Shown here: piece by piece, positions 15,307-52,323 of the stretch
Layout of the letters: each line of letters starts with the position of its first letter
Numbering within the stretch: position 1 is the first letter of the stretch
Assembly (NCBI GenBank): GCA_963730535.1
Contig: CAVSRU010000010.1
Coordinates: 6,142 to 70,141 of the forward strand
Reading direction: 5' to 3'
DNA from: an uncultured Solirubrobacteraceae bacterium
Lineage (GTDB): Bacteria; Actinomycetota; Thermoleophilia; Solirubrobacterales; Solirubrobacteraceae
Length of the DNA stretch: 64,000 bases
Notes under the pieces: generated by a model
The model's database searches: none
What the model saw: only the letters and a program-made list of their open reading frames with translations
Told to the model about the DNA's origin: nothing
Position numbers and translations under genes: made by a program

Positions 15307-15361
15307 CGTGAGCGCCGACCCCCGCGCGCCTGACGGCGCGCGGGGGTTAAGCTCGGCCGCG

Positions 15362-16993
15362 ATGGCCGAGGCCCGCATCGAGCAGCTCGAGCGCGACCTG
15401 GCCGAGGCGGTCGAGCAGCAGGCGGCGGCCCGCGCGGTGCTCGAGGTCATCGGGCGCACGTCGACCGAGCTCGAGCCGGTCTTCGAGACCGTGCTGCGGG
15501 AGGCGGTCAGGCTCTGCCGCGCCGACGCGGGCCTCATCTACGTGCTCGACGAGGACCTGTACCGGCTCGCCTTCGCGATCGGCGGCTCGCAGGAGTACCG
15601 CGACTACGTGGCCGGGATCCCGCTGCGCCGCGGCGCGGGCACGCTGGTCGGCCGCGTCGGCCTCGGGCGGGAGACCGTCCAGATCCTCGACGTGCTCGCC
15701 GACCCCGACTACGAGATGCACCGCGCGCGCGAGCTGGGCGCGTTCCGCACGATGTGCGGCGTCCCGATGCTCTCCTCGGGCAAGGCCGTGGGCGTCATCG
15801 TGCTGTGGCGGGAGACCGTCGAGGCGTTCGAGGACCGCACGGTCGCGCTCGTCACGACCTTCGCCGCCCAGGGCGCGATCGCGATCGAGAACGCCCAGCT
15901 CTTCCACTCCCTCCGGCGCCGCGAGCGCGAGCTCGAGATCGCGGGCCGCCACAAGTCCGAGTTCCTGGCCAGCATGTCGCATGAGCTGCGCACGCCGCTG
16001 AACGCGGTGATCGGCTTCTCCGACGTGCTGCTCGAGCGCATGTTCGGCGACCTCACGGAGCGCCAGGAGGAGTACGTCCGCGACATCCGCGCCTCCGGGC
16101 GGCACCTGCTGGAGCTGATCAACGAGATCCTCGACCTCTCGAAGGTCGAGGCCGGCCGGATGGAGCTCGACGTCGCGCCCCTCTCGCTGCCCGACCTGCT
16201 GGCCCACGGCATGGCGATGGTGCGCGAACGGGCCGCCAACCACCGGATCGCCGTGACGCTCGACGTCGCGCCGGACGTCGGGACGATCTGGGCCGACGAG
16301 CTCAAGCTCAAGCAGGTGGTGCTCAACCTGCTGAGCAACGCGGTCAAGTTCACGCCCGACGGCGGCTCGGTCGCCGTGAAGGCGGAGATCGCTGGCGGCG
16401 AGGCCCGCGTCGAAGTGCGCGACACCGGCATCGGGATCGCGGAGGCCGACCAGGAGCGGATCTTCGAGGCGTTCCAGCGCGGCGGTCGCCAGGCGCCCGC
16501 CGAGGGCACCGGGCTCGGGCTCACCCTCTCGCGGCGGATCGCGGAGCTGCACGGCGGCCGCCTGTGGATGACGAGCCGGGAGGGCGAGGGCAGCACCTTC
16601 ACGTTCGCGGTTCCCGTGCGGCGGGTCGGCGAGGTGCCCGACCGCCGGGGCACGGTGCTCGTGATCGAGGACGACCGGCCGTCGGCCGAGCTGCTGACCG
16701 TCTACCTCGAGGGCGCCGGCTACCAGGCCGTCGTCGCCCGCGACGGCACCGCCGGGCTCGAGCTGGCACGGGAGCTGCTGCCGCGGGCCGTGATCCTCGA
16801 CATCCGGCTGCCGGACGTCGACGGCTGGGAGCTGCTCGCGCGCCTGAAGGGCGAGCCGGAGACGGCGGCGCTGCCGGTGGTCGTCGTGTCGATGCTCGAC
16901 GAGCGGTCACACGGGCTCGCGCTCGGCGCCGCGGGATACCTCGTCAAGCCGGTCGCGCGCGAGCAGATCCTCGACGCCCTGGAGCTGGCGTGA
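15362..16993 (+). CDS. hybrid sensor histidine kinase (coiled coil-GAF-HisKA-HATPase-REC)
   Basis: H-box SHELRTPLN, N box LLSNAVKFT, G box DTGIGI. C-terminal receiver with DIRLPDVDG. ATG 15362; alternative GTG at 15308. Confidence 0.9.
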   Translation: MAEARIEQLERDLAEAVEQQAAARAVLEVIGRTSTELEPVFETVLREAVRLCRADAGLIYVLDEDLYRLAFAIGGSQEYRDYVAGIPLRRGAGTLVGRVGLGRETVQILDVLADPDYEMHRARELGAFRTMCGVPMLSSGKAVGVIVLWRETVEAFEDRTVALVTTFAAQGAIAIENAQLFHSLRRRERELEIAGRHKSEFLASMSHELRTPLNAVIGFSDVLLERMFGDLTERQEEYVRDIRASGRHLLELINEILDLSKVEAGRMELDVAPLSLPDLLAHGMAMVRERAANHRIAVTLDVAPDVGTIWADELKLKQVVLNLLSNAVKFTPDGGSVAVKAEIAGGEARVEVRDTGIGIAEADQERIFEAFQRGGRQAPAEGTGLGLTLSRRIAELHGGRLWMTSREGEGSTFTFAVPVRRVGEVPDRRGTVLVIEDDRPSAELLTVYLEGAGYQAVVARDGTAGLELARELLPRAVILDIRLPDVDGWELLARLKGEPETAALPVVVVSMLDERSHGLALGAAGYLVKPVAREQILDALELA

Positions 16994-18093
16994 ACCGGGT
17001 GCTCGTCGTCGACGACGTGCCGGAGAACCGCCGGCTGCTCGAGGCCGTCCTGGCGCCGCGCGGCTACGACGTCGCGACGGCGAGCGGCGGCCATGAGGCG
17101 CTGGAGCTCGTCGCCGGCGGCGGCGTCGACCTCGTGCTGCTCGACATCGTGATGCCGGACCTCGACGGCTACGAGGTCTGCCGCCGGCTGCGCGCCGACG
17201 CGTCGACGCGCTTCCTGCCGGTGGTGACGATCACCGCCAGCGGCGACCAGGAGAAGCGGCGCGCGCTCGAGGCCGGCGCCGACGACTTCGTGACGAAGCC
17301 GTTCGACCAGGCCGAGCTGCTCGCCCGCGTGCGCTCGCTGCTCCGGCTCAAGCGCTACCACGACACGATCGAGGCCCAGACGGCGGAGCTCGAGGCGTTC
17401 AACCGCCAGCTCGAGCAGCGCGTGCAGGAGCAGGTCCAGGAGCTCGAGCGCGTCGGACGCCTGCGGCGCTTCCTGGCGCCGCAGGTCGCGGACCTCGTCG
17501 TCTCCTCGGGCGACGAGTCGTTCCTCGAGAGCCACCGCAGCGAGATCACGACGCTCGTGTGCGACCTGCGCGGGTTCAGCGCGTTCGCCGAGGCCGTCGA
17601 GCCGGAAGAGGTCATGGCCGTGCTGCGCGAGTACCACGCCGGGGTGGGGGAGGAGCTGCATCGCTACGAGGCCACGCTCGACCGCTTCAGCGGCGGGCGC
17701 GTGATGGCCTACCTCAACGACCCGCTGCCGTGCGCGGACGCCCCCGAGCGGGCGGTGCGCATGGCCGTGGCGGTGCGCGACCGCGTGTGGGAGCTGGCCG
17801 AGGGCTGGAGCCGCTCCGGCTACGACCTGCACCTCGCGATCGGGATCGCCCACGGCCACGCCACGCTCGGGCGCATCGGGTTCGAGGGCCGCTGGGAGTA
17901 CGGCGCCATCGGGAGCGTCACGCTGCTCGCCGAGCGGCTGTCCGAGGCGGCCGAGCCCGGCCAGATCGTCGTCAGCCGCCGGGTCCACTCCGCCACGGAG
18001 GCGATCGTCGTCGCCCAGCCGCTCGGCGAGCTCGCGCTGCCCGGCTTCGCCCGTCCGACCGACGCCTACGACGTCGTCGGCCTCGAGCCCTAG
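16990..18093 (+). CDS. response-regulator receiver fused to a class III adenylate/guanylate cyclase domain
   Basis: GTG 16990 overlaps the kinase stop codon (GTGA). REC motif LLDIVMPDLDG, a coiled-coil linker, then a cyclase homology domain (..TLVCDLRGFSAF..IGIAHG..). Confidence 0.85.
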   Translation: MNRVLVVDDVPENRRLLEAVLAPRGYDVATASGGHEALELVAGGGVDLVLLDIVMPDLDGYEVCRRLRADASTRFLPVVTITASGDQEKRRALEAGADDFVTKPFDQAELLARVRSLLRLKRYHDTIEAQTAELEAFNRQLEQRVQEQVQELERVGRLRRFLAPQVADLVVSSGDESFLESHRSEITTLVCDLRGFSAFAEAVEPEEVMAVLREYHAGVGEELHRYEATLDRFSGGRVMAYLNDPLPCADAPERAVRMAVAVRDRVWELAEGWSRSGYDLHLAIGIAHGHATLGRIGFEGRWEYGAIGSVTLLAERLSEAAEPGQIVVSRRVHSATEAIVVAQPLGELALPGFARPTDAYDVVGLEP

Positions 18094-18674
18094 CCGCCGC
18101 CGCCACAGCCACCGCCGCCGCAGCCGCCACCGCCGCCGCCGCAGCCGCCCCCGACGTGTGCGGTCGAGGCGGCGGAGCCGCCGCCGTACAGGGTCTGGAC
18201 CGAGTCCTGGCTCGCTCGGATGCGCTCGATGTCGTGCGCCTGCCAGAAGAAGCCGCCCTCGATGTCCAGCTGCTGGTCGACGGCGAACAGCAGCGGGACG
18301 CCGGCCACGGTCAGCCCCTGGCTCTCGACGAGGGTGAGCGTGGCCGCGAGGCTCGAGCGCATCGGCACGTCCATCGCCGACTCCGGCGTGTGGTGCAGGT
18401 AGCCGCCGAACGCGTACCGGCAGAAGTGGTGGTACTCGCGCGTCATGAGGATCATCTCGTGCCACGCGACGTCGACCGCCTTGGAGGGCATGCCGAGCAT
18501 CCGGCCGCGGGCGGCCAGGCACACCAGGTACCACTCGCGCAGCCCTTCGAGGGCGATCGCGACCTGGCGGTCGTCGGTGAACGTCTCGCGCAGCTTGGCG
18601 CGCAGTGCGCCCGGGAACTCGTAGCTCTCGATGTATGCCCGGCGCCGTCTGGAGTGGAAGGGGAGGGTGAGCAT
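18090..18674 (-). CDS. hypothetical protein (glycine-rich-domain-protein-like fold) with a C-terminal Gly/Cys tail
   Basis: 194-aa ORF with good third-position GC. Ends ..STAHVGGGCGGGGGGCGGGGCGGGG. Its stop shares the palindrome CTAG with the convergent cyclase gene's stop. Confidence 0.7.
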   Translation of the reverse strand: MLTLPFHSRRRRAYIESYEFPGALRAKLRETFTDDRQVAIALEGLREWYLVCLAARGRMLGMPSKAVDVAWHEMILMTREYHHFCRYAFGGYLHHTPESAMDVPMRSSLAATLTLVESQGLTVAGVPLLFAVDQQLDIEGGFFWQAHDIERIRASQDSVQTLYGGGSAASTAHVGGGCGGGGGGCGGGGCGGGG

Positions 18675-18739
18675 GGGCCAATCCTGCGGCCGGCCGGGCG
18701 CCCGCGGAAGCCACCCTGGGTGGCGCGGTCCGCACCCGC

Positions 18740-19399
18740 TCAGTCGCGGGCGGTCACGATGCCCTGGAGCAGCGCGACGGCGGCGAGGCGCGCGCGCTTC
18801 TGGTTCTGCGGGAGGTCCTCGAGGCCGAAGCGCTCGAACAGCGAGCGCAAGTGGGCCTTTACCGCGTCGACGCTGAGGAAGACCTCCTCGGCGATCTCGC
18901 GGTTGGTGGACGGGGTCGCGAACGCCGAGTCGCGGACCGGCCGGCAGAGCGCGACGAGGATCCGGCGCTGGGTCGGCGTGAGGAGCACCGCCGCCGGGCT
19001 GTCCGGCACCACGACCGTCGAGCTGTCGCCCTGGCTCGGCGCGCCGCGGTAGATCACGGGCGTGTCGCCGAACACCAGCCGGTCACCGTCGCGCAGGACG
19101 CGGCGGCCCACGACCCGCTCGCCGTTGACGAACGACCCGTTGCGCGAGAGCCCGTCGTCGGCCAGCACCCACTGCCCGCCGGTCGCCTCGAGCTGGGCGT
19201 GGAGGCGCGAGACCTCGCGGTCCCAGGCAAGCGCGACGTCGCAGCCGGCGCCGCGGCCAACCGTCAGCGTCCCCGGCGCGAGCTCGTGGATCACCTGGCG
19301 CCCCGCGCCGTCGTGGAAGACGAGGAACGGCGCGCCACGGCGCTCCGCTTCGATGCGCGCCTGGAGCTCGGCGGGGGTGGAGCGGTGGGGGGCGGTCAT
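18740..19399 (-). CDS. FHA domain protein with C-terminal LuxR-like HTH
   Basis: Start MTAPHRS at ATG 19399, which forms an ATGA overlap with the kinase gene. FHA signature GR..CDVAL..VSRLHA..DDGLSRNGSFVNG. C-terminal ..TNREIAEEVFLSVDAVKAHLRSLF.. Confidence 0.85.
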   Translation of the reverse strand: MTAPHRSTPAELQARIEAERRGAPFLVFHDGAGRQVIHELAPGTLTVGRGAGCDVALAWDREVSRLHAQLEATGGQWVLADDGLSRNGSFVNGERVVGRRVLRDGDRLVFGDTPVIYRGAPSQGDSSTVVVPDSPAAVLLTPTQRRILVALCRPVRDSAFATPSTNREIAEEVFLSVDAVKAHLRSLFERFGLEDLPQNQKRARLAAVALLQGIVTARD

Positions 19400-20610
19400 G
19401 CGGCCGGCGCCGGCTCGAGGTCGTCGAGGGCGGCGTGTAGAGCGGCGAGCGGGGCGGCGCTGTCGAGCTCGGCGAGCGCGCGTTCGAGGCGGGCGGTGAT
19501 GGCGTCGAGCTGCTCCTGCGCGCGGCGAGCCGCGGCGAGGCGCTGCGCGAGCGCGGCCACCCGCTCGGCCTTGGCGGGCTCGTGGCCGGAGCGGGCCTCG
19601 GCGATCAGCCGCCCGATCTGCTCGGGCGGATCGGCGGCGACCGCGTCGTCGAGCGCCTGGGCGCGCTCCACGACGCGGCCGAGGCGGTCGAGGAGCGCCG
19701 GCGCGTCGGCGCCGCTCAGCACGGCTCGCGCCTCGGCCTCGAGCCGGCGGGCGGTCGCGACCACCGCGGCCGGCCGGGCCGGCCCGCCGGAGCCCGCGGC
19801 GGCGAGCGCCGCCGCGGCGAACGCCGCCGCGCTCTCGTGCCGCTCGCGCGACTGCTTCGCCATAGCGGTCGCGATCACGTCGTCGAAGGCCTCCGGCGCC
19901 CCCGCGTCCGACACCCGCGGCGGCGGCTCGGCGACGTGCGCCCACAGCTTGCTCTCCGGCGCCTCGAGCGGGAACGGGACGCGCCCGGTGAGCGCGAAGA
20001 ACAGCAGGCAGCCGAGCGCGTAGACGTCGGTCCACGGCCCGGTGACGCCGCCGCGGATGCGCTCGGGCGCGAGGTAGTCGAGCGTGCCCAGCACCTCGGC
20101 GCTGCGCGTGGCGCCGGTGCTGGCGCCGAGGTCCTCGACGAGTCCGAAGTCGGTCAGGTAGCAGTGATCGTCGCCGGTCACGAGCACGTTGGCGGGCTTC
20201 ACGTCGCGGTGCACGAGGCCGCGCCTGTGCGCCGCCTCGAGCGCCGAGGCGACCTGGCCGAGCAGCCCGGCCGCCCGCCGCGGCGCCAGCGCGCCGTCAC
20301 GCATCACGATCGTCCCGAGGTTGTCGCCGTCGACGTACCGCATGGCGAGGAACAGCGCACCGTCCTCCTCGCCGGCCCGGAAGATCGGCACCACGTTCGG
20401 GTGGTCGAGCGACGCGGCGGTCCGCGACTCGGCGATGAAGCGCCGCCGGAATCCCACGTTCTCCGCCAGCTCCGGCGCGATCAGCTTCAGCGCGACGGTC
20501 CGCTCGAGCGAGAGGTCGGTCGCCGCGTAGACGACGCCCATGCCGCCACGGCCGAGCACCCGCTCGATGCGGTGGCCGGCGAGCACGGAGCCGATGCGAG
20601 GGTCGGGCAC
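19396..20610 (-). CDS. serine/threonine protein kinase
   Basis: GRGGMGVVY P-loop, ALK, HRDVKPAN, DFG and APE motifs. Ala-rich coiled-coil C-terminus. Confidence 0.9.
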   Translation of the reverse strand: MPDPRIGSVLAGHRIERVLGRGGMGVVYAATDLSLERTVALKLIAPELAENVGFRRRFIAESRTAASLDHPNVVPIFRAGEEDGALFLAMRYVDGDNLGTIVMRDGALAPRRAAGLLGQVASALEAAHRRGLVHRDVKPANVLVTGDDHCYLTDFGLVEDLGASTGATRSAEVLGTLDYLAPERIRGGVTGPWTDVYALGCLLFFALTGRVPFPLEAPESKLWAHVAEPPPRVSDAGAPEAFDDVIATAMAKQSRERHESAAAFAAAALAAAGSGGPARPAAVVATARRLEAEARAVLSGADAPALLDRLGRVVERAQALDDAVAADPPEQIGRLIAEARSGHEPAKAERVAALAQRLAAARRAQEQLDAITARLERALAELDSAAPLAALHAALDDLEPAPAA

Positions 20611-20687
20611 GGCTCAGTTGTAACCGCGGCGGGGTGTCCGGGCAACCGCAGGTGTGGAGGTCGACACCCGGGTGCCGGGGTTGCGCT

Positions 20688-20946
20688 GGCGAACGTCAAC
20701 TGCGCTGGGTAGGGAGAGTGGGGGTGCCGAAGGGGACAATGGTCCCTCGTCCGAGCGGCTCGTGGCCGGTTAGGAGCCGTAGCGGCTCACAAGTGGACAA
20801 CCGATCGCCGAACGAGGCCACGTTGTCCAATTAGGAGCCGTAGCGGCTCACAAACGGACAACCGATCGCCGAGCGACCCCGCGTTGTCCGGTTCTGCACA
20901 CCCGCCGGCTCCCCAGCCTCCCTACCCAGCGCTGTTGACGTTCGCC
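20688..20946. mobile_element. MITE-like nested-palindromic element, copy 1 (subfamily A); mobility inferred
   Basis: 29-bp terminal inverted repeat: GGCGAACGTCAACTGCGCTGGGTAGGGAG at 20688..20716 against its reverse complement at 20918..20946, with 1 mismatch. The core is about 80-90% identical to copy 2. No ORF with coding character. Confidence 0.7.
20770..20891. repeat. 61-bp tandem duplication (2 units) of a double-hairpin module inside element copy 1
   Basis: Units at 20770..20830 and 20831..20891. Each is TTAGGAGCCGTAGCGGCTCACAA + GGACAAC-N19-GTTGTCC. Copy 2 carries a single unit. Confidence 0.85.
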
Positions 20947-22109
20947 GAAACCACCGCGGCCAACCGAGCCACGGCGGTCTCGAGCTCATCCTCGCCAAGG
21001 AAGCTGAACGAGACCCGCAGCTCGTCACCCCCGCCGTCGTCCGGATAGAACGGCGCGCCCGGCACGTAGGCCACGCCGGCCTCGAGCGCCGCCGCACGCA
21101 TCGCGGTCGTGTCGATCCCCGGCAGCGAGAGCCAGGTGAAGAACCCGCCCGCGGGCTCGCTCCACCCGCACCCCGGTGGCATGTGCTCGCGCAGCGCCCG
21201 CTCGACCGCCCGCCAGTGCGACGCGTAGAGCGCCCGTGCCTCCGGGATCCGCCGCTCGAAGTGGCCGGCGCGGCCGTAGGCCTCGACGATCCGCTGCCCG
21301 AGGCCGCCGGCGCACTGGTCGGTCGTCTGCTTGGCCGCCGCCATCTGCGCGATCACGTCGCGCGGGCCGGCAGCCCAGCCGAGCCGCACGCCCGGGCAGA
21401 AGATCTTCGAGAACGTCCCCGCCTGCACGACGACGTCTGGCGCCAGCGACCACAGCGTCGGCGGCGCGGCGCCGTCCTCGAACGCGATCTCGCGGTACGC
21501 GACGTCCTCGAGGACGAGCACCCCGTACCGTCGGCAGAGGTCGACGAGCGCCTGCCGGCGCGGCAGCGACAGCGTGCGGCCGCTCGGGTTCTGGAACTCC
21601 GGGATCACGTACGCGAGCTTGGGCCGCAGGCCGGCCGCCAGCCGCTCCTCGAGCACGTCCACCCGCATCCCGTCCTCGTCCATCTCGATCCCGTGGACGT
21701 CGGCCTCGACGCCCGCGAAGGCCATCAGCGCGCCGAGGTAGGTGGGCGCCTCGACGACCACCGCGTCGCCGGGGTCGATCAGGCTCTGGCACGCCAGCGT
21801 GATGCACTCCATGCCGCCGCTCGTGACGATCAGCTCGGCCGTCTCCGGGCGCCGGCCCTCGAGCTGCTCCTGGCGGTCGAGCAGGAACTCGCGCACGCTC
21901 GGGATGCCCTCGACCGGCGCATACTGGAGCGCGCCGGCGGGATCGTCGCGGAGCAGCGCGGCGACCAGGTCGCCGAGCGCGTCGGCGGGGAAGGTGGCCG
22001 GGTTGGGGAACCCGCCCATCAGGGACAGGACCCCGGGCGGCGGTCCGGCCAGGATCGCGTTCAGCTCGGCGTCGCCCCGGTTGCGAGCGCGGCGCGCGAA
22101 CTCAGGCAT
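20922..22109 (-). CDS. PLP-dependent aminotransferase (class I/II fold)
   Basis: 395-aa ORF. PLP-lysine region GTFSKIFCPGVRLGW. The last 7 codons (ANVNSAG) and the TAG stop lie inside the element's terminal repeat. Confidence 0.85.
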   Translation of the reverse strand: MPEFARRARNRGDAELNAILAGPPPGVLSLMGGFPNPATFPADALGDLVAALLRDDPAGALQYAPVEGIPSVREFLLDRQEQLEGRRPETAELIVTSGGMECITLACQSLIDPGDAVVVEAPTYLGALMAFAGVEADVHGIEMDEDGMRVDVLEERLAAGLRPKLAYVIPEFQNPSGRTLSLPRRQALVDLCRRYGVLVLEDVAYREIAFEDGAAPPTLWSLAPDVVVQAGTFSKIFCPGVRLGWAAGPRDVIAQMAAAKQTTDQCAGGLGQRIVEAYGRAGHFERRIPEARALYASHWRAVERALREHMPPGCGWSEPAGGFFTWLSLPGIDTTAMRAAALEAGVAYVPGAPFYPDDGGGDELRVSFSFLGEDELETAVARLAAVVSANVNSAG

Positions 22110-24325: not shown

Positions 24326-24517
24326 AACGTCAACTGCGGCTAGGTAGGAGGGTGGCGGTGCCGAAGGGGACAATGGTCCCTCGTCCGGGCGGGGTGTGGC
24401 CGGTTAGGAGCCGTAGCGGCTCACAAACGGGCAACCGATCGCGGAACGAGGCCGCGTTGTCCGGTTATGTGCCGCCGGTCGGCCCCTCCGCCACCCTACC
24501 CAGCCGCAGTTGACGTT
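24326..24517. mobile_element. MITE-like nested-palindromic element, copy 2 (subfamily A)
   Basis: Termini AACGTCAACTGCGGCTAGGTAGG.. and ..CCTACCCAGCCGCAGTTGACGTT. Shares its core with copy 1 (GGTGCCGAAGGGGACAATGGTCCCTCGTCC..GGCCGGTTAGGAGCCGTAGCGGCTCACAAACGG..). Ends 9 nt from the GH92 stop codon. Confidence 0.7.
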
Positions 24518-24525
24518 CGCTGGCG

Positions 24526-27500
24526 CTACCGCGTCGCCACGACCTCCACCCCGGCGACCCAGCCGCCCCAGCCGTCGGTGGGCTTGCTGTCCTGTATCCG
24601 CAGGTAGAACGTCCGCCCCCCGCCGCGCAGGTCGTTGAGCTGCAGCTCGTACTTCTCCCGGTTGGAGAGGTCGCGGATCTCGCGCGTCTCGCGCAGGTGC
24701 TCGGTCCAGTGCTCGTTGTCGACGGAGGACGACACGACGAACTGGTTGCCCATGTCGAGCGTCAAGGTGCCGCCCGTGACCCCGGCCGGGAGCGTGAAGC
24801 GGTACGTGAAGTACGTGCCGTTGTCCGCGAACCGGCCGCCGTTGTTGAGCTGCGAGCCGTCCGCGTCGAACAGCCACGGGCGCTCCTCGTCAGTCCCGGA
24901 CGCGAACGCGATCGTGTCGCCGACGACCTGGAGCGAGCCGCGCGCGGAGACCGGCTCGTCCTCGCCCGTCGTCGCGCTCACCTGCAGCGGATACGAGCCA
25001 GGCGCGGCGCCCGCCGGCACGGTGACCGAGAACTCGACGGTCTTCGACTCGCCGGGCGCGAGCGGACCGTACGCGGCCGACGTGGGCGTGACCGTGAACC
25101 CGGCCGGCGCGGTCATGGTCACCTCGCCGCTCGCCGCCGTCTCGCCGTAGTTCGAGACCTTCACCGGCACGGTCGCGCTCTCACCCGCCCCGGCGGCCGC
25201 GCCAGATCCGACCTCGACCACGACCGGCGACGCGCTGACCGGCCGGTAGTCGAGCAGCTCGACCTCGGCGACCGCCGCCGGCCGCGCGAAGCGGATCCGG
25301 TACGCGCTGTAGTCGTCGGTCCGCGAGAGCTTGAACGCCCGGGTCTGCGAGCGCCAGCGGAACTGCTCACCGCGCCGCGAGTCGAGCACCGTCCAGCTCT
25401 GCCCGTCGTGTGAGCCCTCCACGACCCAGTCGCCCGGGTCGGCGCCCTCGGCCTTGCCCGAGGTGAGCGTGTAGAACTGCACCCGCTCGCCAGCCGGGAA
25501 CTCCCAGGCCGCCTCGGACCCGGTCGCCTCGGTGCCCGACGTGTTGTCGAACAGCGCGCCGGCGTCGTCGCCGCCGGTCAGGTCGGTGAGCGGCTCGGGC
25601 GGCTCGTTGCCGCCGGTGATCGACGGCGGCGCGTCGGGCTGCCGGCTGCCCCACTTCGAGGGAGCGGGGCCCATCGCGAACTCGAGCCGGCCGCCGCTCG
25701 CGAGGTCCTCGTGGCGCAGGTAGGCGCGCTCCCACGCCTTCCCGTTGAGTCGAAGCCCCTGCACGTACACGTTGCGGCGGCTGTTGGCCGGCGCCTCGAC
25801 CACGAGGTCGCGGCCGTTGGCGAGGTGCACGGTCGCGCGCTTGAACAGCGGCGAGCCGACGGCGTAGTTCGGGCTCCCGACCTGGAGCGGGTAGAAGCCG
25901 AGCGCGCTGAACAGGTACCAGGCCGAGGTCTCGCCGTTGTCCTCGTCACCGGCGTAGCCCTGCCCGATCTCGGAGCCGACGTACATCCGCCGGAGCGCCT
26001 CGCGCACCTTGGCCTGCGTCTTCGACGGCTGGCCCGCGTAGTCGTACATGTACGGGATGTGGTGGGAGACCTGGTTCGAGAAGCCCCACTGGCCCATGCG
26101 CACGTCGCGCGCCTCGGTCATCTCGTGGATCACGCCGCCGTAGGAGCCGACGAACTTGGCGGTCTCCGGCGTCGCGAAGAACTCGTCGAGCTTCGCCGCC
26201 AGGCGGTCGCGGCCGCCGTACAGGTTCGCGAGCCCCTGCCCGTCGTGCGGCACGTGGAACGCGAAGTTCCAGCCGTCGGTCTCGGTGTAGTCGTGCTCGT
26301 GGCCCCAGACCCGGGGGTCGTACTCCTCCGGGGAGGACTTCCACGTCCCGTCCGACGCCCGCCCCTGGAAGAAGCGGATCGCCGGGTCGAACATGTTCAC
26401 GTAGTTCTGCGACCGGCTGCGGAAGTACTCCGCCTCCTCGCGGTAGCGGCGCCGGTCGGCCGAGCTGAACGTCCGGTCGTCAGCGAGCACGGCGGCCGAG
26501 TTCGAGATCCCGAAGTCGTTGATCGCGCCCTCGAGACCCCACGAGACGCCCTCGGACACGCGCGACGGCGTGTAGCCGAGGAAGATCGACTCGATCAGCC
26601 CCTTGCGGCCGACCTGCGTGTTGTACGGGTCGTCCTCGGGCGGCGCCACGGTCGCGTTGCGCAGCGCGGCGTCGTAGGCGTCGCGGGCGTCGAAGCCCTT
26701 GATGCCCTTGACGTGGGCGTCGGCGAACGACACGTCGGAGCTCGTGCCGGTCATCAGGTTCGCGTAGCCGGGCGACGACCAGCGCGAGATCCACCCGCCG
26801 TCGCGGTACTGCTGCACGAAGCCGTCGACCAGCTCGCCGGCCGTGCCCGCGTCGAACAGCGAGTACGCCGACCATGCGGTGCGGTACGTGTCCCAGAACC
26901 CGTTGTTCACGTACACCTTGCCGGGCCGGATCGGCGCGCCGGTCCGCTCGGGGGTGCTGGGCGGCGGCGTGTCCGAGTCCGTCGACTGCACCGCGTGCTC
27001 CCACTGCGGGCTCGCCGCCGTGCCGGTGTTCTCGTGACCCGAGTTGGGATACAGCGAGAGCCGGTAGAGGTTCGAGTACAGCGTCGTCAGCTGGTCCTCG
27101 GTCGCGCCCTCGACCTCGATGACGCCGAGCTTGCGGTCCCAGAGCTGCTGCGCCCGGGCGGACACGCTCTCGATCGTGTCGCTGTCGGACAGCTCGAGCT
27201 CGAGGTTGTGCTTCGCCTGGTCCACGCTGATCAGCGAGGTCGCGATCCGCATGTTCACCGTTCGCGCGTTGAAGCGCTGGCCGTCGACCATCGGTTGGTC
27301 GAACGTGGCGTAGATGAACATCCGCGTGGCGCCGTTGGAGAGGCCGCTGCGCGTCTCGGTCCAGCCCGTCAGGACGCCGTCGGAGATGTTCACGTCCCAC
27401 CGGTCGCCGGCGCCGACGTTCCGGAAGTTCAGGCCGCCCGAGTCACCCGGGAAGGTGAAGCGGAACAACGCCGCGTGGTCGGTCGGCGCGATCTCGGTGC

Positions 27501-28992
27501 CGATGCCGTTGTCGAACTTCACCGCGTAGCGGTGCGGCGAGGCCACCTCGTTGGCGTGCCGGAACGTGAGCTCCTGCGGGATGCCGTCCGCGAAGGGAAC
27601 GACCTGGAAGGTCTGGCGGTCGCCCATCCACGGGCTCGGCTGGTGGCTGAGCGAGAACGCCTCGAGCTGCGGCAGGTTGTCCGCGTTGTTGCGGAACTGG
27701 TACTCGTAGAGCCAGCTCAGCGTGTTGGCGTTGGTCACCGGGGTCCAGAAGTTGAACCCGTGCGGGACGGCGGTGGCCGGGATGTTGTTGCCGCGCGAGA
27801 AGCGCGAGCTGGAGTTCGTGCCCCGCCGCGTGTCGACCCAGTCCGACGGCCGCGAGCGGTCCCGCGGCGCGGGGTCGCCGTCGATCGTGATGTCGTCGAC
27901 CCAGCCCTGGAAGTCGGCCGGGCCGTCCGGGTTGTCGTAGGCGACGAGGATGCGGTCGATCGTCTTGCCCGCCGCCACGGCGCCGATGCGTGAGCGCTTG
28001 AAGTTCCACTGGTTCGTGTAGAGGGTCTTCGCTCGACCCTGGCCGGTCGGGCTCAGCTCCTCTCCGTGCTGGTCCTCGGCGCCGAGGTCCGACAGGTAGG
28101 TGCCGTCGGTGAAGGCGAGGTCGACGGCGGCGTAGGTGCTCGGATACGACAGGTCGTCGGTCATGAACCGCGGGTAGATCAGGTACGAGAGCTCGGTCTC
28201 GGGGTTCACCTGGACGTCGACGTCGAAGACCTTGTTGTAGGAGTAGCCGCGCCCCTCGGCGGTGTGCTGCCCGGCGTACTCGAGGGCTCGCAGGCCGGTC
28301 CAGCCGGCGCCCGCCTTGGCGTTGTAGCCGCCGCGCGGGCCGGCTCCGGCGATCGTGCGCATGTCCGACGGCGGCGGGGGAGTGGTGTCGCCGTTGGAGA
28401 GCTCGATCTCGGCCAGCTGCACGATGTTCGTGCCCGAGTTGCGGGTGATGTTCAGGCGGTAGTGGCGGTACGCGGTGGTGTTGGCGAAGTGGTACTCGCG
28501 CTTCTGGAAGCGCTCGGCGAAGACCTGGTCGGTCTGCGTGTCGAGCGTCGTCCACGTCTGGCCGTCGTTGGAGCCCTGGAGCGTCCAGTCGCGGGGGTCG
28601 CGGGGCTGGGCGTCGTTCGCCGACGTCAGCGCGTAGTGGACGACCGCGACCGGCTCGGCGAGCTCGAGCTCGACCCAGGCGGTGGAGGCGAACACCAGCC
28701 ACTTCGTCTCGGCGGAGCCGTCGACGAGGTTCTCCTTGACCTCGCCGCCGCCCGTGTTCTCGCCGCTGGCGCGGACCGCGACGACGCGGTCGGTGACGTT
28801 GCCAGGGATGCCGGAGCGCCGCGGCCCGGAGACGCCGGAGGCGCGCTCGGCCGTGTTCGTCCACGCCGGCTGCGGATCGCCCGGCTCCAGCGACGACGAG
28901 AAGTCCGTGCTCGGCGCGGCCTGCGCGGGCGCGGCGAGCGCGAGCGCGGCAGCCACCGCCAGCGGTCCGAGAATCCGGCTGATCGACTGCAT
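24526..28992 (-). CDS. secreted multidomain glycoside hydrolase family 92 (alpha-mannosidase-like) with discoidin/F5-8 type C and Ig-like domains
   Basis: 1488-aa ORF. Signal peptide ..ALAAPAQAAPS. GH92 signatures GNNIPATAVPHGFNFWTPVT, SHQPSPWMGDRQ and GDEDNGETSAWYLFSALGFYP. Discoidin-like modules at both ends. Confidence 0.9.
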   Translation of the reverse strand: MQSISRILGPLAVAAALALAAPAQAAPSTDFSSSLEPGDPQPAWTNTAERASGVSGPRRSGIPGNVTDRVVAVRASGENTGGGEVKENLVDGSAETKWLVFASTAWVELELAEPVAVVHYALTSANDAQPRDPRDWTLQGSNDGQTWTTLDTQTDQVFAERFQKREYHFANTTAYRHYRLNITRNSGTNIVQLAEIELSNGDTTPPPPSDMRTIAGAGPRGGYNAKAGAGWTGLRALEYAGQHTAEGRGYSYNKVFDVDVQVNPETELSYLIYPRFMTDDLSYPSTYAAVDLAFTDGTYLSDLGAEDQHGEELSPTGQGRAKTLYTNQWNFKRSRIGAVAAGKTIDRILVAYDNPDGPADFQGWVDDITIDGDPAPRDRSRPSDWVDTRRGTNSSSRFSRGNNIPATAVPHGFNFWTPVTNANTLSWLYEYQFRNNADNLPQLEAFSLSHQPSPWMGDRQTFQVVPFADGIPQELTFRHANEVASPHRYAVKFDNGIGTEIAPTDHAALFRFTFPGDSGGLNFRNVGAGDRWDVNISDGVLTGWTETRSGLSNGATRMFIYATFDQPMVDGQRFNARTVNMRIATSLISVDQAKHNLELELSDSDTIESVSARAQQLWDRKLGVIEVEGATEDQLTTLYSNLYRLSLYPNSGHENTGTAASPQWEHAVQSTDSDTPPPSTPERTGAPIRPGKVYVNNGFWDTYRTAWSAYSLFDAGTAGELVDGFVQQYRDGGWISRWSSPGYANLMTGTSSDVSFADAHVKGIKGFDARDAYDAALRNATVAPPEDDPYNTQVGRKGLIESIFLGYTPSRVSEGVSWGLEGAINDFGISNSAAVLADDRTFSSADRRRYREEAEYFRSRSQNYVNMFDPAIRFFQGRASDGTWKSSPEEYDPRVWGHEHDYTETDGWNFAFHVPHDGQGLANLYGGRDRLAAKLDEFFATPETAKFVGSYGGVIHEMTEARDVRMGQWGFSNQVSHHIPYMYDYAGQPSKTQAKVREALRRMYVGSEIGQGYAGDEDNGETSAWYLFSALGFYPLQVGSPNYAVGSPLFKRATVHLANGRDLVVEAPANSRRNVYVQGLRLNGKAWERAYLRHEDLASGGRLEFAMGPAPSKWGSRQPDAPPSITGGNEPPEPLTDLTGGDDAGALFDNTSGTEATGSEAAWEFPAGERVQFYTLTSGKAEGADPGDWVVEGSHDGQSWTVLDSRRGEQFRWRSQTRAFKLSRTDDYSAYRIRFARPAAVAEVELLDYRPVSASPVVVEVGSGAAAGAGESATVPVKVSNYGETAASGEVTMTAPAGFTVTPTSAAYGPLAPGESKTVEFSVTVPAGAAPGSYPLQVSATTGEDEPVSARGSLQVVGDTIAFASGTDEERPWLFDADGSQLNNGGRFADNGTYFTYRFTLPAGVTGGTLTLDMGNQFVVSSSVDNEHWTEHLRETREIRDLSNREKYELQLNDLRGGGRTFYLRIQDSKPTDGWGGWVAGVEVVATR

Positions 28993-29106: not shown

Positions 29107-29655
29107 ATGGCGAAGAACCTCGTGCTCCTCGGGCCGCCCGGCGCCGGCAAGGGGACCCAAGCCGCACGCCTGAGCGAGGACCTCGGTCTCTTCCACCTCT
29201 CGACGGGCGACCAGCTGCGCGAAGAGCGCGAGGCGGACACCGAGCTCGGGCGGCGCGCCGGCGCGTTCATCGAGCTCGGCGAGCTCGTCCCCGACGAGAT
29301 CGTCGTCGCGATGCTGCTCGGGCGGCTCGACGCCGAGCGCGTGGACGGGTTCCTGCTCGACGGCTTCCCGCGCACCGTCACCCAGGCCGAGGCGCTTCAG
29401 GAGGGTCTCGCCGCTCGCGGGAAGGAGCTCGACCAGGCGATCCTGCTCGACGTGCCCGACGAGGAGGTCGTCCGGCGGCTCGCGAGCCGCGGGCGGCAGG
29501 ACGACGCCCCGGACGTCGTCCGCGAGCGCATGCGCGTCTACCACGAGGCCACCGAGCCGCTCGTCGGCTTCTACGACGACCGCGGGCTGCTCACGCGGGT
29601 CGACGGCACGGGCGATCCGGACGCCATCTACGCGCGCGTGCGCGAGTCCGTCTAG
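29107..29655 (+). CDS. adk: adenylate kinase (short type)
   Basis: ATG 29107 within a read-through ORF. P-loop GPPGAGKGTQ, ..LLDGFPRT..; 182 aa with no long LID insertion. Confidence 0.9.
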   Translation: MAKNLVLLGPPGAGKGTQAARLSEDLGLFHLSTGDQLREEREADTELGRRAGAFIELGELVPDEIVVAMLLGRLDAERVDGFLLDGFPRTVTQAEALQEGLAARGKELDQAILLDVPDEEVVRRLASRGRQDDAPDVVRERMRVYHEATEPLVGFYDDRGLLTRVDGTGDPDAIYARVRESV

Positions 29656-29734
29656 CGCCGCCCCGGTAGGAGGGCGGAGGCGAGCAGCGCGCAGCCGGAG
29701 GCGATCGCGCCCTAGCGCTCCGGCGCGGCCGCGA

Positions 29735-35273: not shown

Positions 35274-35987
35274 CTACGCGCTGAGCGCGGCCCGCGCCCG
35301 GGCCACGACAGCCTCGCGGGCGGCCTTGCTCACCGGGCGACGGGCGGCGGCCTCGATCACCGGTGCCGGGTCGTCGAGCCGGACGCGCGCCCACCGGGCT
35401 GCTTCGCCCTTCGAGTACCAGACGCCGTCGGCGGCCCACGCCCACGCGCGGCAAGCCGCCAGCACGAGCTGCGCGCCGGTCGGGTCGTCGGCGGCGAAGA
35501 AACCCAGCGCGTCGCGCAGCGACGCGGCGATGAGCGGCCGCGGCAGCGGCGGCACCACGTCGGCGGCCTCCGGCCCGGCGAGCGCCCGCGCGTGCGCGCG
35601 CCCGATCGAGAGGTCGATCACGAACCAGAAGCGCGGGTCCTTGTCGGGATCGAGGCTGACGTGGCGGTCCATGCGCGGCCCGGTGTTGAGGTTGAGCTGG
35701 TAGGCGGCCGCCGCGAGGTCCTCGCGCGCGTAGAGCACGAACTCGAGCCCGCGGGCCGGTACGGGGAGCGCCTCGTGCTCAAGCGCGGCCACGATCGCCT
35801 CGCGCTCGGCGAGCGGCAGCCGCTCGGAGGTCACGGCCTGCACGTCGAGGTCGCTGCGGCCGGGGTCGAAGTCGCCGAGCGCGGCCGAGCCCATCAGCCA
35901 GACGCCGACGAGCCGGTCACCGGCGACGCGGCGCAGCCGCGCGACGAGCTCCTCCAGGTACGCGGTTGGTAGGTCGGCGAACGTCAA
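35274..35987 (-). CDS. nucleotidyltransferase-domain protein (aminoglycoside adenylyltransferase-like)
   Basis: MGSAALGDFDPGRSDLDV nucleotidyltransferase motif. The only in-frame starts are a TTG inside the element terminal repeat (35987) or an ATG at 36071 inside the element core. Confidence 0.65.
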   Translation of the reverse strand: MTFADLPTAYLEELVARLRRVAGDRLVGVWLMGSAALGDFDPGRSDLDVQAVTSERLPLAEREAIVAALEHEALPVPARGLEFVLYAREDLAAAAYQLNLNTGPRMDRHVSLDPDKDPRFWFVIDLSIGRAHARALAGPEAADVVPPLPRPLIAASLRDALGFFAADDPTGAQLVLAACRAWAWAADGVWYSKGEAARWARVRLDDPAPVIEAAARRPVSKAAREAVVARARAALSA

Positions 35988-36188
35988 CGGCGGCTGGGTA
36001 GGGAGGCTGGGGGGCCGGCGTGGCCGGCGATGGCCCGAACTACGCCGAGTTAGCCGCGGAAACCGGGGCAAACTCGACGACAGTTCGCCGAACTATCCCC
36101 GATTAGCGTCGGTTTCCGGGGGTAATCCGCGATAGTTCGCGCGCGGCGGCTGGCTCCCTCGCCTCCCTACCCAGCCGCAGTTGACGTT
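35980..36188. mobile_element. MITE-like nested-palindromic element, copy 3 (subfamily B core)
   Basis: AACGTCAACGGCGGCTGGGTAGGGAGGC at the left; its reverse complement at the right (GCCTCCCTACCCAGCCGCAGTTGACGTT) with 1 mismatch. The core is unrelated to copies 1 and 2 but also built of nested inverted repeats (e.g. CGAACTATC..GATAGTTCG, CGGAAACCG..CGGTTTCCG). Confidence 0.7.
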
Positions 36189-37981
36189 GAAGTGCACCAC
36201 CGCCACCGGGCGGTGATCGCCGACGCCTCGACCGGCGGCGAGAACAGGTAACCCTGCGCGTAGCGGCAGCCGAGCTCGCGCAGGCAGTCGCGCTGGGACT
36301 CGGTCTCGACCCCCTCGGCGATCACCTCGAGGCCGAACCCGTCGGCGAGGTGCAGGATCGCGGTCACGAGCGTCCGCGCGGTGCGGTCGTCCGGCAGGCC
36401 GCTCACGAACGAGCGGTCGATCTTGATCGTGTGCACCGGCAGGCTGCCGAGCCGCGCCAGGGACGAGTGGCCGGTCCCGAAGTCGTCGATCGCGAGCCGG
36501 ACCCCGAGCCTCTGGAGCGCCTCGATCTCGTCGAGCGCCTCCCGCCGGGCGGACATCATCGGCGACTCGGTCATCTCGAGCACGACGCGCTCGGGATCGG
36601 CGCCGCACGCCTCGATCAGCCGCGTGATCGCGGCGGCGCCGATCTGCCGGCACGTGTCCGGAGGGACGTTGATCGACAGCCAGTGGTGGAGGCCGTCAGC
36701 GCGCCAGGCCGCCGCCTGTCGCGCGGCTGCCCGCAGCACCCACTCGCTCAGCGGCCGGATCAGGCCGGTGCGCTCCGCGACGGGGATGAACTCGCTCGGC
36801 GCCAGCAGACCGCGCTCCGGGTGGTCCCAGCGAGCGAGCGCCTCGACGCCCGTCAGCTCGCCAGAGCCGAGGTCGACGATCGGCTGGTAGCGCAGCGTGA
36901 GCTCGTCATCGGCGATCGCCCGTCGCAGGCGGGCGGCGACGCCGACGTCGCCGTTCGCCACCCGCACGCCCGGCCGGTAGACGCGGAACGCGTCCCGGCC
37001 GGCCGCCTTCGCGTCGTACATCGCGGCGTCGGCGTGGTTGAGCAGCGTCTGGCCGTCGGAGGCGTCGAACGGGAACAGGCTGATGCCCACGCTCGCGCGG
37101 ACCTCGATCTCGACGGTGCTGAGCGAGAACGGCTGAAGCAGGATGCGCCGGAGCCGGTCGGCCACATCCTCGGCCGCTCGTGTCGCTACCTCGCGCTCCT
37201 CCGGGAGGTCGGGCATCAGCATCACGAACTCGTCTCCGCCGTCGCGGCCGACGACGTCGCCCGCGCGCCCGGCACGCCGAAGGCGGTCCGCGATCGCGAT
37301 CAGCAGCTCGTCCCCCGTCTCGTGCCCGAAGCTGTCGTTGACGACCTTGAACTCGTCGAGGTCGACGTACAGCACGGCGACCGAGCGCCCGGATCGCTTC
37401 GCCTCGGCGATCGCCCCGTCGAGCAGGACGCGGAACCGATGGCGGTTCGGGAGGGCGGTCAGCTGGTCGTGGTTGGCGCGATGGGTGAGCTCCTGCTCGG
37501 CGCGCTTGCCGTCGCTGATGTCGATGATCAGCCCCTGGGTGAGGGTGCGACGGCCGTCGACCGGGGGGAGGATGACCGCCTGGTCGACGACCCAGCGGAC
37601 GACCCCGTCAGGCGACAGGACCCGGTACTCGACGCGTAGCGGCTCCCTCGCGGCGATCGCGGCGTCGTACTCCTCCTCGACACGGTCGCGATCGTCGGGG
37701 TGGATGGGGTCGAGCCAGGCGTCCGGGTCGGCCATCCACTGCTCGGGCGTGACACCGAACAGCGCCGTGACCTGCGGGCTGATGAACTGGGTGTCGCCGG
37801 TCTCGAAGTCATCCAGGTAGGTGACCGCCGGCAGGCGCTCGATCAGCGACCGGTACTCGGTGAGGGTCGACTGCAGCTCGCCGTGGAGCGCGGCGTTCTC
37901 GCGCGCGAGCGCGTGGGCGTCGAATCGTGACCCCATACGTCGTGCCAGCGCGCGCAGGGTATGGAGGAGAGGACCTTTCAT
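36167..37981 (-). CDS. PAS-GGDEF-EAL signalling protein
   Basis: Start MKGPLLHT at ATG 37981. GGDEF motif RDGGDEFVML; EAL motif GVEALARW. The last 8 codons and the TAG stop lie inside the terminal repeat of element copy 3. Confidence 0.85.
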   Translation of the reverse strand: MKGPLLHTLRALARRMGSRFDAHALARENAALHGELQSTLTEYRSLIERLPAVTYLDDFETGDTQFISPQVTALFGVTPEQWMADPDAWLDPIHPDDRDRVEEEYDAAIAAREPLRVEYRVLSPDGVVRWVVDQAVILPPVDGRRTLTQGLIIDISDGKRAEQELTHRANHDQLTALPNRHRFRVLLDGAIAEAKRSGRSVAVLYVDLDEFKVVNDSFGHETGDELLIAIADRLRRAGRAGDVVGRDGGDEFVMLMPDLPEEREVATRAAEDVADRLRRILLQPFSLSTVEIEVRASVGISLFPFDASDGQTLLNHADAAMYDAKAAGRDAFRVYRPGVRVANGDVGVAARLRRAIADDELTLRYQPIVDLGSGELTGVEALARWDHPERGLLAPSEFIPVAERTGLIRPLSEWVLRAAARQAAAWRADGLHHWLSINVPPDTCRQIGAAAITRLIEACGADPERVVLEMTESPMMSARREALDEIEALQRLGVRLAIDDFGTGHSSLARLGSLPVHTIKIDRSFVSGLPDDRTARTLVTAILHLADGFGLEVIAEGVETESQRDCLRELGCRYAQGYLFSPPVEASAITARWRWCTSTSTAAG

Positions 37982-38138
37982 GGCGGCCGTTCCTGCTGTT
38001 ATCGGCAGCCCGGGCGGCGAGTGAGAGCGTCTGGCGGCACGTAGTTGCGCACGCAAGTGGTCTGCGCTACTCTGGTGCGAACATAACCGGACTGCGGTAC
38101 GGTTATGCGACACCAGCCACCGAAGGGGAACACTTCCG

Positions 38139-38672
38139 ATGAGCACCGCCACCACCGCGCTCCAGGGCACCTACACCGCCGATCCGGTCCACTCGAGCTT
38201 CGGCTTCTCCGTCCGCTACCAGGGCGTCTCGCTCTTCCGCGGCACGCTCGACGAGGTCGAGGCCACGCTGACCGACGGCCGTCTCGAGGGTCGTGCCAAG
38301 GTCGAGTCGATCTCGATCCGCACCCCCGAGCAGTTCCGCGCCCACGTCCTCTCCGCCGAGTTCTTCGACGCCGAGAACCACCCCGAGGTCATCTTCAGCT
38401 CGAACGACCTCGACGTCTCGGGCGACGGCACCGTCACCGTCGAGGGCGAGCTGACGATCAAGGGCATCACCCGCCCCGTCACCGCCACCGGCACGTGGAT
38501 CGCGCCCGAGGGCGACGCCTTCGGCAACACCCGCGGGCACCTCAACCTCGAGGCCCAGATCGATCGCACCGAGTTCGACATGAACTGGAACGCCCCGCTG
38601 CCCTCAGGCGGCAAGGCGCTCGCCAACGAGGTCACGCTGACCGTCGAGCTCTCGCTGGTCAACCAGGCGTAG
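38139..38672 (+). CDS. YceI family protein
   Basis: 177-aa ORF. ..YTADPVHSSFGFSVRY.. and ..ELTIKGITRPV.. are typical of the YceI lipid/polyisoprenoid-binding fold. GAAGGGGA upstream of the ATG. Confidence 0.85.
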   Translation: MSTATTALQGTYTADPVHSSFGFSVRYQGVSLFRGTLDEVEATLTDGRLEGRAKVESISIRTPEQFRAHVLSAEFFDAENHPEVIFSSNDLDVSGDGTVTVEGELTIKGITRPVTATGTWIAPEGDAFGNTRGHLNLEAQIDRTEFDMNWNAPLPSGGKALANEVTLTVELSLVNQA

Positions 38673-46958: not shown

Positions 46959-46975
46959 AGCTATCGTCCGGTCGT

Positions 46976-48115: not shown

Positions 48116-48127
48116 CTCGCGAGGAGG

Positions 48128-48601: not shown

Positions 48602-48793
48602 GGTGGGTCTCCGATCAGGAGTGGGGTGACGCTTCGGGACGCTAGGTCCGCGGCCGCCGGCCGTCGTCGCCCGCCGGAGCGATCTCGCGCCACGCAGGAG
48701 CGATCCGAGCGGCGGCGCGAGTCACCCACGGTGGCTACGCGCCTCACCCGTCCAGGCGATGCGCAGGCGCCGCGACGAGCGTACGGTTGCCTC

Positions 48794-51956: not shown

Positions 51957-51980
51957 TGGGAGTTCTGGGCGGCGCCGGCA

Positions 51981-52272
51981 AACGTCAACGGCGGCTGGGT
52001 AGGGCGGCTGGGGAGCCAGCGGGTGCGCGTGGATGGGGAGTTTCGTGGATTTCGGCGTGTCTCCAAACGCCGATTTCGATGGCCGCGGGCTCACCGAGAT
52101 ACACGAAAACTCCCCGTCAAGGCGGGCTTAGGTGCATACCGGCGAGGCGAGGATCACCCGGATACACCTTTGTGCGCGTCTAGAGCACAAAGGTGTATCC
52201 GGGCGTCCCGAGACACACCGAAATACACCCAACCCCGGCTTGACAGCCTTCCTACCCAGCCGCCGTTGACGT
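51981..52272. mobile_element. MITE-like nested-palindromic element, copy 4 (subfamily C core)
   Basis: ACGTCAACGGCGGCTGGGTAGG at the left with a perfect reverse complement at the right (CCTACCCAGCCGCCGTTGACGT). The core is AT-richer than its surroundings and built of nested inverted repeats. It lies between two convergent genes. Confidence 0.7.
52157..52203. repeat. perfect 19-bp inverted repeat with a 9-nt spacer at the centre of element copy 4
   Basis: CCCGGATACACCTTTGTGC (52157..52175), GCGTCTAGA, GCACAAAGGTGTATCCGGG (52185..52203). Confidence 0.9.
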
Positions 52273-52323
52273 CCGCCAACAGGACCTCCACGGCGCCAGC
52301 AAAGCGCGCGAACTCGAGGTCGC

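Follow-up and report, generated by a model that had tools for sequence, protein, structure and literature searches.

Among the described interspersed palindromic repeats of bacteria, the bacterial interspersed mosaic elements (BIMEs) of Escherichia coli and the related REPINs are extragenic, high-copy and lineage-specific. They consist of inverted conserved units around a variable linker in a mosaic arrangement, lie after the stop codons of convergent or co-directional genes, show no target-site duplication, and have a GTAG in the conserved unit; REPIN-RAYT systems have been described mainly from Proteobacteria. The Correia elements of Neisseria (CREE/NEMIS) are non-coding, 100-300 bp long, bounded by terminal inverted repeats and present in hundreds of copies near genes, with a TA target-site duplication and discrete size classes; in RNA their inverted repeat forms a long duplex that is cleaved by RNase III. 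ERIC (IRU) and pneumococcal BOX elements are imperfect palindromes in transcribed intergenic DNA, ERIC with internal insertion and deletion (indel) variants and BOX with variable modules (boxA-boxB(n)-boxC), and each has a single core design. That the same ends can enclose different cores is shown by superfamilies of miniature inverted-repeat transposable elements (MITEs) as well as by the BIMEs. The attC sites of integrons, 57-141 bp long, combine conserved inverse ends (..AAC / GTT..) and a variable center with one-sided bulges and a position directly after an open reading frame (ORF), and form cassette arrays of ~1 kb spacing next to intI; the eukaryotic Foldback (FB) transposons have long inverted ends made of variable short tandem subrepeats, with a variable or absent middle. 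Here we analyze a family of non-coding hairpin repeats, apparently undescribed so far, that is found across the Solirubrobacteraceae and is represented by four copies in a stretch of 64,000 nucleotides, referred to throughout as the window, from an uncultured bacterium of that group (contig CAVSRU010000010.1, positions 6,142 to 70,141).

This family is best placed with the interspersed palindromic or mosaic repeats (BIME/REPIN, ERIC, BOX, MITEs), and it lacks the defining properties of each specific family tested. It shares with the BIMEs every feature listed above, including the GTAG, which is found inside the arm segment GGGTAGGG. Unlike a repetitive extragenic palindrome (REP) unit, however, a single arm has no internal stem and pairs only with its partner, all long stems being formed arm to arm; the linker comprises 0-350 nt of modular hairpins of about 30 types, whereas that of a BIME draws on only a handful of brief motifs; Pfam scans of the window and approximate probes in 1.07 Mb of loci revealed no RAYT gene; and the host is an actinobacterial lineage. 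Correia elements are similar in their terminal inverted repeats, size, lack of coding capacity and high copy number near genes, but here there is neither target-site duplication nor a known related insertion sequence (IS), and the cores are many and unrelated. With ERIC and BOX there is no sequence relationship, and only the arms are shared between copies. The likeness to Foldback transposons is a structural parallel only, between different domains of life and without homology.

Reading of the sequence confirms that the window holds exactly four elements, as the initial annotation had proposed. In the window an nhmmer profile of 120 arms recovers eight (E = 9e-14 to 2e-8), with no further or degenerate arm in the 64 kb at E ≤ 1; the chance expectation for these eight arms is ~0. 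The 22-nt end motif ACGTCAACNGCGGCTGGGTAGG, with up to 3 mismatches, has six matches in the window versus none in 100 shuffles, the two arms of copy 1 escaping this search solely through one missing G (GCG-CTGGG) in each, and AACGTCAAC occurs 7 times versus 0.06 expected. All four copies have terminal inverted repeats, of 36-41 nt and 83-92% complementarity. The elements and their parts are as follows.

20688..20946: copy 1, whole element, lying between two minus-strand genes (aminotransferase and Ser/Thr kinase); inverted repeat of 36 nt, 92% complementary
20688..20723, plus strand: left arm of copy 1, GGCG AAC GTCAAC T GCG-CTGGGTAG GGAGAGTGGGG, with one G missing
20763..20884: core of copy 1, two tandem 61-nt hairpin modules, 85% alike
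20911..20946, minus strand: right arm of copy 1, holding the aminotransferase stop codon TAG (20922-20924, read on the minus strand)
20611..20687: non-coding spacer from copy 1 to the kinase start, with a homologous counterpart in the filled allele L152, and missing in the "empty" L151 and L156
24326..24517: copy 2, arms 24326-24364 and 24479-24517, core of the same family as that of copy 1; inverted repeat of 39 nt, 85% complementary
35976..36188: copy 3, arms 35980-36019 and 36149-36188, core of CGAACTA..TTAGC.CGG(AAA/TTT)CCG modules; inverted repeat of 40 nt, 88% complementary
51977..52277: copy 4, arms 51977-52017 and 52237-52277, inner hairpins 52026-52124 and 52116-52244; inverted repeat of 41 nt, 83% complementary

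The division of the interiors into three types (copies 1 and 2; copy 3; copy 4) is borne out by clustering, and so is the folding of each whole element into a branched hairpin, which for every copy is far more stable than dinucleotide shuffles (z = -9.3, -7.7, -10.2 and -12.3 for copies 1 to 4, respectively).

Outside the window the terminal repeat is abundant. The exact arm motif is present in at least 104 stretches (tiles) of the GTDB species-representative genomes; among the matches listed, nearly all the arm-bearing tiles belong to metagenome-assembled genomes (MAGs) of Solirubrobacteraceae or Solirubrobacterales, about 30 in number, with 20 tiles coming from a single MAG and a 2.4-kb contig binned as Asanoa as the sole outlier. 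Loci from other genomes are denoted below by L and a number; most of them were ascertained by an exact arm match. One of these, L104 (MAG MFD06742.bin.2.54), aligns collinearly with 6.3 kb of the window (86.7% identity), which makes the source of the window a relative of that MAG. The initial annotation could not assign the repeat to a named family, and the searches agree with it: in Rfam the window gives no match at the gathering score, and in E-value mode only weak chance matches for the region of copies 1 and 2; the plasmid collection has no match to the whole element and only chance-level matches to a 50-nt arm; a scan of viral contigs for the terminal repeat gives no match; and the searchable literature has nothing relevant for the repeats of this taxon or for the arm sequence. 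The only Rfam match in eight of the loci is a c-di-AMP (ydaO/yuaA) riboswitch at L019:5600-5748 (60.9 bits), unrelated to the elements.

The arm is ~45 bp long and itself repetitive: hexamer repeats (GCGAAC/GTCAAC) are followed by two tandem 13-mers (GGCGGCTGGGTAG/GGAGGCTGGGGAG) and by CCGGCG, the consensus being (GCC)GGCG-AAC-(GTCAAC)n-K-GCGGCTGGGTAG-GGAGGCTGGGGAG-CCGGCG. The arm of copy 4 displays the tandem 13-mers as GGCGGCTGGGTAG / GGCGGCTGGGGAG. In an alignment of 156 arms, conservation is strong from position -1 to about +31 and decays gradually outward (A 93%, G 80%, C 72%, G 74%, G 67%). The number of GTCAAC hexamers varies from 0 to 3 per arm; an unequal number in the two arms of an element, like other one-sided variants (GCGC for GCGGC, CATTGAGGG for CTGGGTAGGG), produces a bulge in the stem. 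Beyond this variation in hexamer number, the outer ends of some elements have tandem "stutters" of 14-22 nt (L014:3647-3690 and L064:7762-7800; for example, AACGTCAACTGCCG three times).

What the arms enclose is far from uniform. Clustering of 65 paired elements, 77-430 nt long, yields about 30 core types; each of the three types of the window is found again in other genomes, and several copies of one type can be found within one genome. As an example, the 61-nt module that is duplicated in copy 1 is single in copy 2 and in L069, and the core family of copy 4 is also found in L014, L019, L020 and L089. In general, the cores are assembled from short hairpin modules that vary in number and orientation, down to minimal "shells" of ~80 nt (for example in L001, L007 and L047). 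At the other extreme, L019:6454-7226 has four arm-plus-shell units nested, at ~59 nt per side, around a core of the copy 4 type, reflecting either self-nesting or symmetric terminal duplication. The hairpin GAGTCCGGAGTTGTTCGGCCTCAGGCCGAACAACTCCGGACTC, which is the core of elements in L053, L065, L074 and L086, also stands alone and armless directly after a TGA stop codon at L081:6262-6318, an arrangement indicating that the structure of the family is mosaic.

Cores are exchanged in place, and may also shrink or grow there, between arms that stay. At five pairs of orthologous sites (L009/L016, L059/L064, L007/L002, L018/L038 and L077/L078) the arms persist and the cores differ completely. The clearest case is copy 1 of the window compared with L152, with homologous non-coding flanks on both sides and unrelated cores; copy 2 and its ortholog in L150 also have different cores. 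Copy 3 and L104:6381-6617 show a milder divergence, with arms ~90% identical, cores of the same family at 69.5% and flanks at 86.7%. The initial annotation had considered a conserved end with interchangeable cores unusual; given the MITE superfamilies and BIMEs the arrangement is not odd in itself, and what does stand out is the number of core types and their replacement at orthologous sites.

The arms and the cores also differ in the level at which they are conserved. The partner arms, which were not used for finding the loci, agree with the consensus at 93% identity; for the cores, the closest match to any other core averages 86.5%, and for 19 of 60 there is no homologue at all. Pairing between the two arms of an element is, at every variable column, that expected for independent arms (at the N position, for instance, the arms are complementary 15 times versus 13.6 expected); since there is no covariation, the arm is kept as a sequence and not as a helix, which suggests recognition by a protein or templating from other copies. 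In the cores of four homologous elements both sides changed in 14 of 72 pairs, and the module repeats of a given element resemble each other more than they resemble their counterparts in another element, i.e. they are homogenized. Neither strand is favored as RNA: would-be G-U mismatches number 48 on the sense (transcribed) strand versus 61 on the antisense strand, and the folding energies of sense and antisense RNA do not differ (p = 0.16). Taken together, the lack of arm covariation, the paired changes in the cores and the symmetry of the strands argue that palindromy is maintained at the DNA level; they offer no indication that selection acts on a single RNA strand, and the palindrome looks like a feature of the DNA. 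A known mechanism that would maintain palindromy in this way is template switching, in a quasi-palindrome, from one arm to the other.

With respect to genes the elements have a marked preference for 3' ends. In the gene contexts counted for 83 elements, with gene calls that outside the window are crude (G+C content of third codon positions), 16 elements lie between convergent genes, about 19 between co-directional and 2 between divergent ones, and most of the remainder have the 3' end of a gene on at least one side. Stop codons mostly lie between -22 and +11 nt from AACGTC, and in 11 of the 83 elements, copies 1 and 3 of the window included, the TAG within the arm motif GGGTAGG is the gene's own stop codon. 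The proximity to a stop codon, or overlap with it, that had been noticed for the window holds at all four copies. The following genes adjoin copies 1 to 3.

15308..20610: gene block of ~5.3 kb (hybrid histidine kinase ... FHA, Ser/Thr kinase), beginning beside copy 1
20922..22109, minus strand: class I/II aminotransferase gene, whose last ~7 codons and stop are encoded by an arm of copy 1
24526-28992, minus strand: GH92 gene, stop codon 8 nt from copy 2
36167..38170, minus strand: PAS-GGDEF-EAL gene, ending inside the right arm of copy 3 (TAG at 36167-36169), absent from the syntenic relative L104

On its other side copy 2 precedes a 297-aa ORF, by 17 nt if the longest-ORF start is taken, and copy 4 is flanked by convergent genes, lying 25 nt after the stop codon of a ferredoxin-NADP+ reductase (FNR) gene and 51 nt before that of a DUF5655 gene. 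The suggestion that the outward-reading TTGACG of each terminus could act as a -35 hexamer finds no support, as there is neither a -10 partner nor a sigma-70-like promoter at any window copy. Terminators of the hairpin-plus-T-run kind number zero at the four copies; what comes after the arms is CGCC.

Several elements lie where close relatives differ by gene-sized segments. On the GGDEF-EAL side of copy 3, window positions 36189-38040 correspond to just 32 nt (6342-6374) in L104, an 87%-identical relative, and on the other side of the copy there is a nucleotidyltransferase-like gene in the window versus a CotH-like gene (by motifs) in L104. L150, L105 and L106 lack the 5.3-kb block from the kinase to the histidine kinase, and in them another gene adjoins the element; the 297-aa ORF beside copy 2 is absent from L150; and extra DNA lies beside elements in L078 (2.9 kb) and L099 (0.9 kb). 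By eye, and in small numbers, synteny breaks in these alignments are seen at 3 of 3 junctions with an element and at none of about 10 element-free junctions. Deletion between two neighboring elements, which could in principle account at once for a swapped core and a lost gene, was considered and rejected for L078 and copy 2, as no second element is found at the far boundary.

The history of insertion is harder to read. The highest full-length identity between any two copies is 89%, so the family is old and has had no recent burst; the presence of the same arm-plus-core units at many loci nevertheless implies copying. None of 49 well-bounded copies has a target-site duplication in its flanks, which are mostly inverted (GGCG...CGCC) or unrelated on one side. 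For the site of copy 1 we recovered seven orthologous alleles: L150, L105 and L152 are filled, L106 retains only a small remnant, and L151 and L156 are empty, the aminotransferase stop overlapping the kinase start. These two alleles keep a sequence, ..GAAAC TGCACC.., that resembles the first 12 nt of an arm lacking the GTCAAC hexamer, are without a 73-nt spacer common to both filled alleles, window and L152, and fall among filled alleles in the gene tree, in which support for the deep nodes is weak. The most fitting reading is that they arose by secondary, imprecise deletion and are not pre-insertion sites. No empty site was found for copy 4, the FNR orthologs being too distant (77-88% at the amino acid level) and not syntenic. 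Distant aminotransferase orthologs without the element (L107:2790-2840, L109:1340-1386 and relatives) end in ..AAG*; for example, the ortholog end GCC GCT GGT TAG G agrees at 11 of 13 positions with the GCG GCT GGG TAG G of the arm, which may be a coincidence, an old arm remnant or a similarity of the target.

The absence of a transposase from the window, claimed at the outset, is borne out by Pfam scans of ~48 window ORFs, which show no transposase, integrase or HUH-nuclease domain, and neither the window nor the loci (1.07 Mb) nor the plasmid collection yielded an autonomous IS with these ends. Three kinds of candidate were considered and set aside. Arm pairs up to 4 kb apart, which might have been long elements enclosing genes, all resolve into separate small elements or degenerate partner arms. 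The transposase at L033:300-1880 belongs to an IS1182-like IS that lies inside the core of an element and has inverted ends of its own (..GCATAGAGGCTGT..); the L033 contig is the one binned as Asanoa, probably by misbinning. The ORF at L065:1188-1910, as a possible mobilizer, adjoins an element with a single canonical arm and is not bounded by arms; it encodes 240 aa, HTH-HNH endonuclease-like by motifs, and lies just downstream of a dnaG-like ORF.

These results can be brought together in a model to which we give somewhat better than even credence: that the elements are lineage-specific mosaic palindromic repeats whose arms serve as recognition or homology sites at the DNA level, whose cores are rebuilt in place, and which are spread by an enzyme that leaves no target-site duplication. 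The arms would be the part recognized by a trans-acting protein. The absence of target-site duplication and the hairpin design lead away from a DDE transposase and towards a hairpin- or site-specific enzyme, which might be of the Y1/HUH or IS110 type or a recombinase; a host DNA-binding protein is a further candidate. As portable homology, the arms could permit recombination or gene conversion between copies, which would swap cores and seed insertions and deletions, and the cores may grow and stay palindromic through template switching between the arms together with internal duplication. Recombination or conversion, combined with palindrome-driven template switching, would make such sites fragile. 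As a side effect, transcripts running past the stop codon would gain a stem of 30-45 bp, a possible 3'-end barrier or processing site; such an RNA hairpin behind the stop codon is likely but unproven. Several observations weigh against this model. Near-identical copies are absent, and current mobility is therefore unproven. Neither a mobilizing enzyme nor an arm-bounded gene was found in the Pfam scans of the window or among the loci, and tblastn with approximate Y1/RAYT probes gave no match in 1.07 Mb, although this is a weak negative. The recovered alleles include no clean filled-versus-empty pair. The link between elements and indels depends on a comparison, made by eye, of some 3 element-bearing junctions with some 10 that lack one, and the ascertainment of most loci by exact arm match inflates the apparent conservation of the arms.

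The alternatives share part of this evidence. Classical MITEs, derived by deletion from an IS of the DDE-transposase type or by capture of its terminal repeats and mobilized in trans, with the core types as subfamilies served by one transposase, would explain the form of the elements, and in this respect the description "MITE-like" of the initial annotation stands: they have terminal inverted repeats, measure 190-300 bp in the window, are non-coding and multi-copy, and fall into several subfamilies with common ends. The tandem subrepeats of the arms could also be multiple transposase-binding sites, and a palindromic target might account for the conserved GGCG/CGCC flanks. The part of the description that does not stand concerns origin, as target-site duplication is absent in all 49 copies, no partner IS was found in the window, the loci or the plasmid collection (that of L033 having other ends), nor a clean empty site, no two copies exceed 89% identity, and the conservation of the arms in old copies is not expected of dead MITEs; we regard this origin as unlikely but not negligible. 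Somewhat less probable in our judgment is that the elements are primarily RNA elements of the host, i.e. hairpins of 3' untranslated regions (UTRs) that act as factor-independent terminator, exonuclease barrier, RNase III site or ribosome staller and are selected in the transcript, mobility being incidental or extinct. Their location within ~10 nt of stop codons, the avoidance of divergent promoter regions, the great stability of the stems and the continued occupation of orthologous sites across species all fit this view, and REPs and Correia elements are known to have RNA effects of the 3'-UTR type. But the transcribed strand shows neither an excess of G-U-compatible changes nor an energy bias, the arms are kept as sequence without covariation, the T-run after the stem is missing, and a purely structural role does not require the same arms around about 30 unrelated cores.

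The readings in which the elements are sites of site-specific recombination have to be judged along the same lines. In one of them, the arms would be the sites of a dedicated DNA enzyme (a hairpin or cruciform recombinase, IS110-like or HUH-type) that installs and exchanges hairpin "cassettes" behind stop codons, making the elements active hot spots of gene gain and loss. We hold this to be improbable; if it were true, the elements would represent a new kind of site-specific system in Actinomycetota and not decaying MITEs. Less probable still is that they are attC-like, or other, sites marking mobile gene cassettes as in an integron. There are points of resemblance: the elements are imperfect palindromes with conserved ends and variable centers, directly after ORFs, their outermost bases are AAC...GTT, they have one-sided bulges (a G, the GTCAAC hexamer, TGGGTA opposite ATTGA), gene-sized indels abut them, and two genes end within an arm. 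However, CGTCAAC/GTTGACG departs from the RYYYAAC/GTTRRRY consensus at two of the four degenerate positions on each side; the elements are longer (190-430 nt) and do not form arrays, being 3.4-16 kb apart with ordinary chromosomal genes between them; variable genes have an element on one side only and are not bracketed by two sites; no integrase domain was found by Pfam in the window ORFs; and integrons are not known from this phylum. The integron reading is rejected because the core-site consensus, the size and spacing of the elements and the gene content do not fit it. That the repeats are an artefact of assembly or sequencing, as at least one frameshift in the window (in the FNR gene, and possibly an assembly indel) might have suggested, is virtually excluded, since assemblies made independently by different projects and technologies, with long and with short reads, carry the same element at orthologous positions.

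The interest of the family lies in its host as well as in its structure. The Solirubrobacteraceae are abundant soil bacteria, almost uncultured, whose genome dynamics are barely described, and in their genomes the family seems to fill a sizeable share of the 3' intergenic spacers. The elements supply stop codons and C-terminal residues to genes and coincide with points at which close relatives differ by blocks of genes. If a specific protein binds the arms, the family would offer a route to a new enzyme of mobilization or recombination in Actinomycetota, a natural experiment showing how genomes tolerate, keep and rebuild long palindromes, and a marker for the binning and annotation of MAGs. 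In practical terms, the elements create false ORF extensions and possible break points in assemblies. If they are only a fossil repeat, they would still be a useful addition to repeat libraries, without being a surprise.

Some further features of the window, which has a G+C content of ~73% and ordinary chromosomal genes, may be mentioned. The FNR gene upstream of copy 4 (50744-51944) is split over two frames, with the shift near 51216-51241: the frame that matches residues 1-166 of the homolog differs from the one that matches residues 158-397, so that the gene is either a pseudogene or affected by an assembly indel. A paralog of the GGDEF-EAL gene is located at 42179-45673. At 16993-19396, 29655-30925 and 46958-48626 there are long overlapping ORFs on both strands with no Pfam match; in the first of these stretches, relatives have a response-regulator/guanylate-cyclase gene and a UCP032817-like gene.

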